Of a DNA stretch of 64,000 bases, positions 46,959 to 50,281 are shown one piece after another. The stretch lies in assembly GCA_965222315.1 (NCBI GenBank), contig OZ244951.1, positions 4,550,146 through 4,614,145 on the forward strand, in the 5' to 3' direction. A program made the translations under genes and the position numbers. The stretch is from Alphaproteobacteria bacterium (GTDB lineage: Bacteria > Pseudomonadota > Alphaproteobacteria > Bin95). The stretch's first letter is position 1. Each line of letters starts with the position of its first letter. Below the pieces are notes generated by a model. The model was not told the origin of the DNA. It searched no databases and was given only the letters and a program-made list of their open reading frames with translations.

Positions 46959-47009
46959 GGCTTCTTCGAGACATGCCCATGAGGCATCATCATCGAAGGA
47001 CACCGCGCC

Positions 47010-47744
47010 ATGACAGCCAAGCCAATCGCTCGCTCGGGCTATATGCCGGAGAAAAACCTGGGGCCCGCCGCTACCCTGCCCGCGCGGCCAGAGGGGCTGC
47101 TGCTTCGCCCCGCCGAAACCGCGCTCGTCATCGTCGATATGCAGAACGCCTATGCCTCCAAGGGCGGGTATATCGATCTTGCAGGCTTCGACGTATCCGG
47201 CGCACCAGCGGTCGTCGAACAGATCAAGCTGGCCAAGGCAGCGGCAAAGGCTGCTGGAATTCCAGTCATCTACTTCCAGAATGGCTGGGACGCCGACTAT
47301 GTGGAAGCCGGCGGCGAGGGTTCGCCAAATTGGTACAAGTCCAATGCCCTGAAAACCATGCGCGAGCGGCCGGAACTCTGGGGTAGTCTGCTAGCGAAAG
47401 GCGGTTGGGACTATGCGGTGATCGACGATCTGGTCCCGGGACCCGGCGACTTGGTCGTCCCAAAACCGCGCTACAGCGGCTTTTTCAACACCAATTTCGA
47501 TAGCTTGCTGCGAACAAAGGGTATCCGGAACCTGGTGTTTACAGGGGTTGCCACCAATGTCTGTGTCGAGTCATCGATCCGCGACGCCTTTTTTCTGGAG
47601 TATTTTTCCGTCGTGCTCGAAGACGCCGTCCTGCATGCCGGGCCCGACTTCGTGCGCCAAGCCTCCCTATTCAACATAGAGACGTTTTTTGGCTGGGTTT
47701 CGAGCGTCGCCGATTTCGCCGGGACGATTGCACAGGTCGAGTAA
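47010..47744 (+). CDS. rutB: RutB-like ureidoacrylate amidohydrolase (isochorismatase family)
   Basis: [54 protein letters not shown]. Confidence 0.9.
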
Positions 47745-47828
47745 CCCGTCTGGCTGATTCCGGGCGAAATACCCGTCAGCTAAAAAAACCGCGTGACACC
47801 GCCGCGCCGCGCCGCTAGCGTTCGGCCC

Positions 47829-47918
47829 ATGATCACCTTCCCCGCCTCCTCGGCCACCTATTTTTGGTACTTTAGCTATCCGGGCCACCAGGCGGACGGA
47901 GAGGGTCGTATGCGCTAA
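47829..47918 (+). CDS. Putative aromatic-amino-acid attenuator leader peptide (29 aa)
   Basis: MITFPASSATYFWYFSYPGHQADGEGRMR*. Six of seven consecutive codons are Tyr/Phe/Trp. Lies upstream of a terminator and the DAHP synthase. Confidence 0.8.
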   Translation: MITFPASSATYFWYFSYPGHQADGEGRMR

Positions 47919-47945
47919 AACCAGCAGCACAATCGAAACCGAACC

Positions 47946-47977
47946 AAACCGCCAGCTTTCTGGCGGTTTTGCTTTTT
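47946..47977 (+). terminator. Attenuator terminator upstream of the DAHP synthase
   Basis: AAACCGCCAG-CTTT-CTGGCGGTTT followed by TGCTTTTT, about 40 nt before the start codon. Confidence 0.82.
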
Positions 47978-48015
47978 CGGGCAGGTCGCCGGGAGCCTTA
48001 CAAAGGACCCAGACA

Positions 48016-49086
48016 ATGACTTTGCCTGCAAACGATACCGAAACTCCAAGCCTGACACCGCTTCGCTCACCCGGCGAACTTCGGGAGGCCGTGCCGGCGT
48101 CGCCATCCGCTCAAGCGACCGTCCAGACCGCACGGGCCGCCGCACGCGCCATCCTGTCCGGCCAGGATGACCGGCTTTTGGTGGTCGTCGGCCCCTGCTC
48201 GATCCACGACCCGGAAGCGGCGCTGGAATACGCTGCACTGATCCGAACGGCGCGGCACGAATTGGGCAGCCATCTTGAAATCGTCATGCGGACCTATTTC
48301 TCCAAGCCGCGCACGACAGTCGGGTGGAAAGGCCTGATCCATGATCCACTGCTCGACGGAGCCGGCGACATCAACCTGGGCCTGCGCAAGGCGCGGAAAC
48401 TGCTCGCAGAGATCCACGGCATGGGCGTCCCGGCCGGGACCGAGTACTTGGATACCATCGCGCCGGCCTACCTGGATGACCTAATCAGTTGGGCGGCAAT
48501 CGGCGCGCGAACGACAGAGAGCCAGGTTCACCGCGAACTGGCCTCGGGCGCGGCCTGTCCGATCGGGTTCAAGAACGGTACCAACGGCGACGTGCAGGTC
48601 GCCCTGCACGGGATCGAAGCGGCGGCGAGCCGACATCGCATAGTGTCGATTGGCGACGATGGCCGTGCCGTCATCATCGAGACGCCCGGCAATCCGGATT
48701 GTCACCTGATCCTGCGCGGCGGCGTCGAGCCGAACTACGCTGCCGCGTCGGTGGATGCTGCGTGCATTGCTGCCGCCCACAGCGGCCAGCGCGGCGCGGT
48801 CATGATCGATACGAGCCATGGCAATAGCCGCAAAAAGCCCGAAAACCAGCCCATCGTCTCGTCGGCGGTCGCGGATCAAGTCGCGGCTGGCGACCAGCGC
48901 ATTATCGGCTTGATGATCGAAAGCAATCTGGTTGCCGGTCAGCAAAGCATCGACGCCCGGCCGCTGCGCTATGGGCAAAGCGTGACCGACGGCTGTGTCG
49001 ATTGGCAAACGACAGAGGAGATGCTGCTCGATCTGGCAAATGCGGTGTCGCTCCGCCGTCAGGCAACGCAGCGGCTGGCTGGGTAG
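48016..49086 (+). CDS. Class I(alpha) DAHP synthase (AroF/G/H type)
   Basis: DDRLLVVVGPCSIHD, YFSKPRTTVGWKGLI, AIGARTTESQVHRELASG, SHGNSRK, YGQSVTDGC. Confidence 0.95.
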   Translation: MTLPANDTETPSLTPLRSPGELREAVPASPSAQATVQTARAAARAILSGQDDRLLVVVGPCSIHDPEAALEYAALIRTARHELGSHLEIVMRTYFSKPRTTVGWKGLIHDPLLDGAGDINLGLRKARKLLAEIHGMGVPAGTEYLDTIAPAYLDDLISWAAIGARTTESQVHRELASGAACPIGFKNGTNGDVQVALHGIEAAASRHRIVSIGDDGRAVIIETPGNPDCHLILRGGVEPNYAAASVDAACIAAAHSGQRGAVMIDTSHGNSRKKPENQPIVSSAVADQVAAGDQRIIGLMIESNLVAGQQSIDARPLRYGQSVTDGCVDWQTTEEMLLDLANAVSLRRQATQRLAG

Positions 49087-49177: not shown

Positions 49178-50281
49178 ATGACTTCCCTCAAGACCCCGCT
49201 CTGCGATCTGCTGGAAATCGAATATCCCATTGTCCTCGCGGGCATGGGCTCCTGGGGGATGGGTACGCCGCCGGCGCTGGTGGCGGCGGTTTCCAATGCG
49301 GGCGGGCTGGGGGTGCTCGGTTGCTCTAACCTCTCAGCCAAGGAAGTGGAGGAACGCATCCGTGAGGTCCGGCGGCTCACGGACAAGCCGTTCGGTGTCG
49401 ATCTCCTGCTCCCCGCCTCCCTGAAGCAGGCTCCCGGCTCCCGTGCTGCCGTGCGCCAGGAAATCCGCGACAACCACCCGGAACATTGGGCCTTCCTGGA
49501 AGAGCTGCACCGCCGTTTCGGCCTCCCCGAAAGGCCCTTCCAGCACGACCATGTCATTTCCGCCGAACTGATCGCCCAGCAAATCGAGGTGACCCTAAAC
49601 GAGCGCGTGCCGGTGTTCGCGGCGGGGTTGGGCGATCCTGCCATCGTCGTGCCGCGCGCCCGCGAGATCGGCATGAAGGTGATGGGCGTATGCGGCTCGC
49701 CGCGCAACGCAGTCCGGCAGGTCAAGGCGGGCGTCGACGCCATCATCGCTCAGGGTACGGAGGGCGGCGGCCATACCGGCCAGATCGCCAGCTTTGCTCT
49801 GCTACCCCAAGTGGTGGACGCAGCAGGCGATATCCCGGTGCTGGGCGCGGGCGGTATCAGTGATGGCCGGGGCGTGGCGGCGGCGCTGGCGCTGGGCGCG
49901 CAGGGGGTCTGGGTCGGAACGGCCTTTCTGGTCGCGGACGAGGGCGGCTTGCCCGATGCGTTGAAGGATCAGATTGTCGAGGCGTCGACCAGCGACATGC
50001 GCATTTCGCCCTACTGGACCGGCAAGACGGTGCGCGCGGTCCAGAACGATGTCGCCAAAGCCTGGGAAGAAAGCGGCCTGCCCTCGCTGCCAACCCCGCA
50101 CCAGCGTGTGCTGATGGAAGACTTCAAGGAAGCCGCCATGGCTGCCGGACGCTTTGAAATAACCATGAATGCGGGCGGGCAGGGAGCCGGAATGATCACC
50201 AGACGCCGGCCCGCCGCAGACATATTCAATGGTTTGATTGACACGACCCGCGAAACATTGGACCGTCTCGGACGCATATAA
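49178..50281 (+). CDS. Nitronate monooxygenase/FabK-like FMN enzyme
   Basis: YPIVLAGMG, AVSNAGGLG, AQGTEGGGHTG, AGGISDGRG. Confidence 0.88.
   Translation: MTSLKTPLCDLLEIEYPIVLAGMGSWGMGTPPALVAAVSNAGGLGVLGCSNLSAKEVEERIREVRRLTDKPFGVDLLLPASLKQAPGSRAAVRQEIRDNHPEHWAFLEELHRRFGLPERPFQHDHVISAELIAQQIEVTLNERVPVFAAGLGDPAIVVPRAREIGMKVMGVCGSPRNAVRQVKAGVDAIIAQGTEGGGHTGQIASFALLPQVVDAAGDIPVLGAGGISDGRGVAAALALGAQGVWVGTAFLVADEGGLPDALKDQIVEASTSDMRISPYWTGKTVRAVQNDVAKAWEESGLPSLPTPHQRVLMEDFKEAAMAAGRFEITMNAGGQGAGMITRRRPAADIFNGLIDTTRETLDRLGRI

Follow-up and report, generated by a model that had tools for sequence, protein, structure and literature searches.

The class I DAHP synthase gene in a 64,000-nt stretch of an alphaproteobacterial genome (GenBank assembly GCA_965222315.1, contig OZ244951.1, positions 4,550,146 to 4,614,145; hereafter the window, whose own numbering is used throughout) is very likely controlled by a ribosome-mediated transcription attenuator, in which an upstream open reading frame (uORF) with a cluster of Tyr, Phe and Trp codons is followed by an intrinsic terminator and by a pairing that would exclude it. 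This reading of a ribosome-coupled attenuator with mutually exclusive stems had been put forward in an original prediction made from the window's letters, and it gained support from two sides: the leader precedes the gene at 44 of 83 class I DAHP synthase loci and occurs at 17 further loci found with a covariance model, and in an alignment of 29 representatives the terminator and antiterminator stems form standard pairs in 97% and 87.7% of cells, respectively. Our analysis is computational and draws on sequence anatomy, conservation, conserved alternative pairings and in silico thermodynamics.

An aromatic leader peptide precedes the DAHP synthase gene

DAHP synthase catalyses the entry reaction into the synthesis of aromatic amino acids. 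That the gene behind the leader encodes this enzyme was confirmed by its matches to PF00793 and TIGR00034 (Table 1). The gene starts at 48016, in front of which lies a Shine-Dalgarno-like AAGGA (48003-48007). The protein scores under the NCBIfam cut-offs for both the AroG equivalog (443.5 vs 568) and the AroH subfamily (420.8 vs 463), and we therefore left its feedback specificity unassigned. The supposition that a single DAHP synthase is under control had to be given up, since the same genome also encodes a class II enzyme (712.8 bits); inspection of the region upstream of the class II gene revealed no such leader, so that the attenuator would tune one of two enzymes.

Re-reading the sequence recovered every landmark of the original prediction: a 29-codon frame with six aromatic codons in seven, a 10-bp hairpin with a U-rich tail at 47946-47977 before the gene, and the words CCGCCT (47842-47847), AGGCGG (47890-47895) and CCGCC (47949-47953). 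Codons 11-17 of the uORF are aromatic in 6 of the 7 positions, which makes it rich in codons for the end products of the pathway, as an attenuator leader should be. Aromatic codons make up 7.7% of all codons in 1762 long open reading frames of this genome (62% G+C), and a binomial estimate from that frequency puts the chance of at least six in seven at about 1e-6 per seven-codon run. Scanning all six frames of the 5.16 Mb genome returned 201 runs with at least five aromatic codons in seven; only 3 of the 201 lie in a short frame that has a hairpin of -15 kcal/mol or lower and a T run no more than 130 nt behind it, namely the leader before the DAHP synthase gene and two sites at 2104162 and 3709806 (minus strand). 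The first of these two (G000:C1:2104162-2104290) was rejected as a second leader, its frame opening at a stop codon with no start codon in the 20 open codons before the cluster. Its aromatic-rich frame is followed by a -17 kcal/mol hairpin and, downstream, by a Phd/YefM-like antitoxin gene, an arrangement that we judged to be due to chance.

The leader recurs with DAHP synthase genes in three proteobacterial classes

Among 41 genomes (the window's own and 40 relatives) only 4 carry a homolog of the DAHP synthase, and in the other three carriers the uORF, its aromatic core and the hairpin all stand upstream of the gene. In genome G002 the homolog falls into two overlapping pieces (L004 and L005, residues 1-256 and 250-356) behind an intact leader, which suggests a frameshift or an assembly error in this metagenome-assembled genome (MAG). 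A scan with one genome per species contributed 80 further loci, whose enzymes are 50-76% identical. We scored a locus as positive when a uORF of at most 40 codons held at least 3 aromatic codons in 7 and was followed, within 110 nt of its stop, by a hairpin of -13 kcal/mol or lower and then at least 6 T in 8 nt. Under these criteria 44 of the 83 loci proved positive and retain the uORF and its aromatic cluster; the negatives include three loci (L028, L040, L069) with less than 200 nt of upstream sequence, which can hardly be judged.

The positive loci belong to Bradyrhizobium, Rhizobium, Mesorhizobium, Kaistia, Devosia, Caulobacter, Phenylobacterium, two genera of Alcaligenaceae and a gammaproteobacterial MAG. 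When the leader label is mapped onto a quick maximum-likelihood tree of all 83 enzymes, 4 changes suffice, compared with a mean of 27.9 for shuffled labels (none of 500 shuffles reached so low a count). Nearly every alphaproteobacterial sequence carries the label, as do some Alcaligenaceae and the gammaproteobacterial MAG; 36 further beta- and gammaproteobacterial sequences, among them one with a Bacteroidota label, form a clade that lacks it. Many of the betaproteobacterial loci that lack the attenuator (L034-L073) have in common a GGTAATATATTGTTTT-like stretch some 100 nt before the DAHP synthase gene, possibly a control element of another kind. At about 270-335 nt before the gene, three of the betaproteobacterial loci that are close relatives of one another (L046, L049, L056) have a short frame that begins M-A-G-G-F/L-R-F and holds several aromatic residues, and no good terminator was found after it.

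We also built a covariance model (R1) from the 29 representatives, which spans the ATG to the T tract, holds the terminator as its sole structure and makes no selection on open reading frames. In the window's genome R1 gave one full-length match (95.9 bits), the rest being terminator-sized or scoring 16 bits. A class-level sample of 151 genomes yielded six matches of at least 60 bits, four of them new, and a phylum-level sample of 151 genomes yielded 15 matches at E <= 1e-5, 13 of them new. Each of the 17 new strong matches immediately precedes a class I DAHP synthase homolog and contains an in-frame aromatic-rich reading frame; of the 13 from the phylum sample, 12 begin with ATG at model position 1, and the remaining one has a GTG in frame six bases further upstream. 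Of four weaker full-length matches that we examined, L099, L102 and L107 are false positives, with neither an aromatic uORF nor a DAHP synthase gene downstream. The fourth, L098 (genome G140, 1501-1700), has a 15-codon uORF with Y-F-W-Y-F, the promoter spacing of a leaderless transcript and a terminator, and precedes a partial class II DAHP synthase gene (Pfam PF01474, E 5.5e-31); hence the class I enzyme is not the only one that the aromatic leader accompanies. A blastn search of a plasmid collection with 47784-48100 gave no match.

This distribution bears on the simplest competing explanation, in which the hairpin is the terminator of the upstream isochorismatase-family gene and the aromatic-rich frame arose by chance. 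The upstream gene does lie on the same strand, with no other terminator-like site before 47946, and transcripts that run on from it may well be stopped at the hairpin too. The uORF and the hairpin, however, accompany the DAHP synthase gene and not the upstream gene, at both the 44 positive loci and the 17 model matches, and the upstream neighbours differ in the three relatives' loci that we read (G003, G002, G033). A promoter-like element separates the isochorismatase-family gene from the uORF ATG, and the chance estimate given above for the aromatic cluster is very small. Conservation thus largely refutes a chance frame, and the explanation as a whole is hardly credible.

Terminator and antiterminator share a conserved strand

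Between 47000 and 49500 we found 3 terminator-like sites (shuffle mean 2.3), and the hairpin at 47946-47969 is the only one on the plus strand; the other two, both on the minus strand, are its own mirror image and a 7-pair site at 48010-48028. The hairpin has 10 pairs, 6 of them G-C, and is followed by the tail TGCTTTTT, so that an intrinsic terminator stands between the uORF and the gene. Across the representatives the conserved part of the stem comprises 8 bp, and its letters, CCGCCAG/CTGGCGG, are almost invariant across three proteobacterial classes. Such invariance is unusual for a terminator and fits a strand that needs two pairing partners, as judged from the alignment. Another possible contributor is horizontal transfer of gene and leader as a unit, in view of the gene's patchy occurrence in the relatives.

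The second partner would be the antiterminator strand, which in relatives reads CTGGCGG-like and lies within the uORF. Its seven pairs with the terminator 5' arm (alignment columns 131-137) can be compared with those of the terminator by sliding the partner by 1-3 columns, upon which pairing falls to 17-59% for terminator and antiterminator alike. In six Rhizobium rows a G-C pair of the antiterminator is replaced by A-U on both sides, a compensatory change that the terminator tolerates as G-U. RNAalifold returned the antiterminator core when the 3' arm was left out and the terminator when it was included. The 5-bp GGCGG:CCGCC antiterminator of the original prediction is conserved, and in relatives it proved to be the core of a longer pairing. 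Together, the stem conservation and the single compensatory change are supportive of alternative pairing, not decisive.

A third pairing precedes both. Minimum-energy folds of the nascent leader (-34.4 kcal/mol) place 47842-47847 opposite 47890-47895, as the original prediction had anticipated, inside a longer predicted helix (Table 1). While the terminator arm is still missing from the transcript, the predicted folds of all 29 representatives give the antiterminator strand a 5' partner (P 0.47-1.0), whose position varies by clade: the first uORF codons in the window's clade and in Bradyrhizobium, a stretch just after the aromatic codons in Rhizobium and Caulobacter. By pairing conservation and predicted folds, the leader thus has both an antiterminator that excludes the terminator and an upstream competitor for the antiterminator strand.

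Past the T tract, GCCGCCGG-like letters are conserved (columns 232-239 of alignment A1) and form a candidate fifth segment, which can pair with the terminator 3' arm in 81.5% of cells with no covariation beyond shuffles; it could do so in the read-through RNA. This segment and the interrupted T tail of the window would suit an alternative in which translation or RNA stability is the main level of control, the alternative pairings governing access to the DAHP synthase ribosome-binding site or mRNA decay while the hairpin terminates poorly. Against this, the hairpin and T run fit the usual terminator pattern in 44 of 44 positive loci, for which the hairpin itself was a selection criterion, no conserved pairing with the AAGGA site was seen, and the fifth-segment pairing lacks excess covariation. 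We consider control of this kind very unlikely to be the main mode.

Table 1. Features of the leader, the DAHP synthase gene and its neighbours (window coordinates)
Feature	Position	Strand	Details
Isochorismatase-family gene, upstream neighbour	47010-47744	+	
Promoter-like element	47792..47820	+	-35 cGTGAC 47792-47797; -10 CTAGCG 47815-47820; uORF ATG 8 nt past -10
Leader peptide uORF	47829..47918	+	29 codons and stop; ATG 47829, TAA 47916-47918; translation MITFPASSATYFWYFSYPGHQADGEGRMR, then stop
Predicted anti-antiterminator helix, 5' strand	47829..47847	+	AUGAUC 47829-47834, CUUC 47837-47840, CCGCCU 47842-47847; predicted fold of nascent leader
Control codons	47859..47879	+	TAT TTT TGG TAC TTT AGC TAT (Y F W Y F S Y), codons 11-17
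Predicted antiterminator strand and outer-helix 3' strand	47888..47909	+	Core AGGCGG 47890-47895; GGAG 47898-47901, GGUCGU 47904-47909; inside uORF
Intrinsic terminator	47946..47977	+	5' arm 47946-47955, loop of 4, 3' arm 47960-47969, T-rich tail to 47977
Candidate fifth segment after T tract	47978..47994 (placement approximate)	+	CCGCC-like
Class I (AroF/G/H-type) DAHP synthase	48016..49086	+	Pfam PF00793 E 3e-80; NCBIfam TIGR00034 453 bits
Nitronate monooxygenase-family gene	49178-50281	+	Pfam PF03060; 91-nt gap after DAHP synthase

Aromatic codon content is conserved while the peptide diverges

We tallied the leader peptides of 60 loci (L121 and L098 excluded), which gave 53 distinct peptides of 20-30 residues. 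Phe and Tyr codons are present in 53 of 53, and a Trp codon in 34, never more than one per leader. The aromatic identity of these positions is kept while the nucleotides differ, and the flanks of the cluster diverge strongly between clades: the clade-specific peptides include R-F-Y-S-Y-R-C in Rhizobium, F-Y-F-Y-F-F-G-F in Alcaligenaceae and runs of F in the non-alphaproteobacterial genome G220. Because the residues around the cluster vary so strongly, we conclude from the aligned sequences that selection is on the aromatic codon content and not on one peptide. Seven of 10 leader peptides searched for do not occur in a collection of 15 billion proteins, and the remaining 3 are labelled 'hypothetical protein'.

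Codon choice was counted in the window's leader and 59 distinct related uORFs. Inside the cluster TTT accounts for 109 of 128 Phe codons and TAT for 90 of 142 Tyr codons; outside it, in the same uORFs, the counts are 7 of 21 and 2 of 16, and in the genes of the window's genome TTT makes up 21% of Phe codons. The enrichment of U-ending Phe and Tyr codons is thus restricted to the cluster. A preference for the wobble-read, rarer codon is what would be expected if sensitivity to tRNA charging were selected; it could alternatively come from the need for an A+U-rich unpaired stretch.

A peptide with the core F-W-Y-F-S-Y-P could in principle be a functional small protein, or a nascent-chain sensor and arrest peptide that responds to free aromatic amino acids and not to tRNA charging, like TnaC. 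The conserved Ser and Pro beside the cluster in many clades, and the Caulobacter leader peptides that databases call as proteins, would be in keeping with such a role. In TnaC-type systems a conserved peptide senses the free amino acid, and termination is Rho-dependent, not intrinsic. Here, in contrast, clades differ widely in the peptide sequence beyond the aromatic cluster while the aromatic codon content and the RNA strands are retained, and the leader has a canonical intrinsic terminator and an antiterminator, which a charging model requires and an arrest-peptide model does not. The leader accordingly lacks the hallmarks of the TnaC type, and we regard a peptide-based sensor or a functional small protein as highly improbable.

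Ribosome position is predicted to switch between the pairings

To follow the attenuator reading through translation, we placed a mask of 28-30 nt over each codon in turn as the A site and computed equilibrium folds of the nascent RNA as far as the terminator loop. With a ribosome at Tyr11 of the window's leader, the terminator 5' arm is paired with a probability (P) of 0.66; with no ribosome, or with one at the stop codon, P is 0.03. When pairs across the ribosome are disallowed, P stays near 0.5 through Tyr17 in the window and then drops, and in 15 of 17 representatives it does not drop under 0.5 before the last aromatic codon has been passed. Moving the ribosome to the stop codon lowers P in 16 of the 17; for Brackiella no figure was computable at the stop codon. 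In G033, Devosia and the gammaproteobacterial MAG21, P falls only some codons past the cluster. In the window, stalls at Y11 and F12 favour the antiterminator under both masking models, and stalls at all aromatic codons do so only with cross-ribosome pairs disallowed.

Under the proposed mechanism, the leader peptide would be read from a leaderless RNA that starts at or near 47829. With charged tRNA-Phe, tRNA-Tyr and perhaps tRNA-Trp plentiful, the ribosome would pass the aromatic cluster and reach the stop codon at 47916, where the GGCGG strand (47890-47895) would be covered by the ribosome or re-paired with the 5' part of the uORF (47829-47847). The CCGCCAG arm would then be free, the hairpin would form, and RNA polymerase would stop in the T tract, leaving an RNA of about 147 nt. 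A ribosome stalled at the aromatic codons (47859-47879) would instead cover or wedge apart the 5' partner, and the freed GGCGG would pair with the terminator 5' arm, so that no hairpin forms and transcription continues into the DAHP synthase gene. A three-amino-acid OR gate, in which a shortage of Tyr, Phe or Trp is enough, is plausible, since in the folding model no positions are better placed for antitermination than the first codons for Tyr, Phe and Trp; bearing on a three-way gate, Trp is dispensable in a third of the leaders (absent from 19 of 53).

Several points weigh against this interpretation. The transcript start at 47829, actual termination with a 3' end near 47975 and the starvation response are what we infer from it. 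With cross-ribosome pairs permitted, P reaches only 0.03-0.10 for a ribosome stalled at W13, Y14 or F15, so that for these codons the model relies on a steric assumption. The Bradyrhizobium and Caulobacter relatives favour the antiterminator even without a ribosome (P about 0.8 in the equilibrium fold), and kinetics or timing must then decide. The window's own antiterminator core is 5 bp (GGCGG:CCGCC) with only weak extensions. Most stem positions are invariant, and the covariation amounts to one lineage event. Within the peptide, S, Y and P residues and an L-A-x-G-G stretch are conserved as well as the aromatic residues, and RNA pairing accounts for L-A-x-G-G only. Finally, the 44 positive loci and the 17 model matches are related and hence not independent.

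The leader is probably transcribed from its own start codon

The uORF ATG follows a promoter-like element at a spacing that would place the transcript start at or near the ATG itself. We devised an alphaproteobacterial-style pattern of our own (nnGACn, 16-18 nt, nTAnnn, 6-9 nt, ATG) and found it before the uORF ATG in 38 of 44 leader-bearing loci, compared with 142 of 50,000 random ATGs of the window's genome; an SD-like (Shine-Dalgarno-like) tetramer lies upstream of the uORF in only 4 of the 44. A scan for E. coli-type promoters found none at the locus. On this spacing the transcript probably starts at the ATG (47829) or within a few bases of it, and the uORF is probably leaderless. The attenuator RNA of Sinorhizobium trpL is described as leaderless in excerpts of two articles (PMC10117765, PMC6614838).

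The eight public sequencing runs listed consist of assembled contigs, which cannot reveal RNA ends. A contig of a run guessed to be RNA extends from 47825 across the hairpin to 48154, and we rejected its left end as an RNA 5' end: it is more likely an assembly break, because a run of unknown kind also breaks at 47827-47842.

In the predicted minimum-energy fold the first six bases of such an RNA (47829-47834), which contain the AUG, pair with 47904-47909 near the end of the uORF, and similar outer helices are predicted in the Bradyrhizobium and Caulobacter folds. In this model the pairing could limit each leader to one round of translation.

Relation to known attenuators and biological meaning

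Curated Rfam leader families include Trp, Phe, His, Thr and Leu leaders. A cmscan of 47000-49000 against Rfam 15 (E <= 10) identified no matching family; it gave two matches, a partial, terminator-shaped one to rnk_pseudo (19.1 bits vs a gathering score of 55) and an unrelated one of 14 bits on the minus strand inside the coding region. The original prediction knew of no such leader characterised in Alphaproteobacteria, and full-text searches likewise gave no report of an aromatic DAHP synthase leader for Proteobacteria, although older subscription papers and the supplements of PMC8632094, with further uORF candidates, could hold one. The terms aroF, aroG, aroH, aromatic and DAHP are all absent from the text of PMC2965389, 'aromatic' occurs in PMC1262725 in the reference list only, and PMC4833913 and PMC4117421 contain nothing relevant.

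The leader resembles enterobacterial trpL, pheL and hisL in its short uORF with end-product codons, its 1:2, 2:3 and 3:4 pairings, its intrinsic terminator and its presumed read-out of charged tRNA. Unlike them, it has control codons for two or three amino acids, regulates the entry enzyme of the common pathway, and has no sequence or Rfam match to them; its uORF is probably leaderless and runs on through the antiterminator strand, and its control codons lie in the loop between that strand and the 5' partner. In E. coli the DAHP synthase step is under the TyrR and TrpR repressors, as an excerpt of PMC11802643 states. A functional parallel is the aroR leader of Corynebacterium glutamicum, which was predicted earlier before aroF (PMC4046766) and whose Phe-Tyr-Phe codons are reported to respond to Phe and not to Tyr (PMC11802643, which cites Neshat et al. 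2014). It shares mixed aromatic codons and attenuation of an operon containing a DAHP synthase gene, and differs, by description only, in its phylum and in having only three control codons and no Trp. A candidate uORF in Acholeplasma, uORFC-13-1, likewise contains Phe codons by a terminator upstream of the DAHP synthase gene aroF (PMC8632094, in excerpt); as described there, it is confined to Acholeplasma and environmental sequences (24 representatives), its Phe codons come from a U run, and as far as that description goes its sequence is unrelated.

The Sinorhizobium meliloti trpL leader is also alphaproteobacterial, and its RNA, rnTrpL, starts at the uORF AUG, as the window's RNA probably does; excerpts of PMC6614838 and PMC10117765 describe three stem-loops and a released small RNA. 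It differs from the window's leader in sensing Trp only and in controlling trpE(G), and trans action of both RNA and peptide was shown there. By analogy with rnTrpL and peTrpL, one could imagine a phylum-spanning, undescribed attenuator family with two or three tRNA-charging inputs, a leaderless uORF whose AUG is sequestered (47829-34 with 47904-09) and which is translated for a single round, and an RNA of about 147 nt and/or an F-W-Y-F-S-Y-P peptide that acts in trans on other aromatic-pathway genes. We hold this fuller scheme to be unlikely. What appears modestly unusual from the sequences is the combination of mixed aromatic control codons, a probably leaderless uORF, its extension through the antiterminator strand and the fifth segment after the T tract.

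The leader thus represents a real, widely conserved and apparently uncurated attenuator family, whose mechanism itself is textbook. In the textbook E. coli case the aromatic entry step is held under repressors and isozyme feedback, whereas many members of the Alpha-, Beta- and Gammaproteobacteria seem to rely on a gauge of tRNA charging, with the codons of several end products in one leader. Recognizing this unannotated leader would improve the annotation of many genomes, including those of rhizobia and Caulobacter, and it offers a natural multi-input attenuator in which the effect of codon order and choice on the sensitivity to each amino acid could be studied. For engineering the production of aromatic compounds in these hosts, it would be a known brake to remove.

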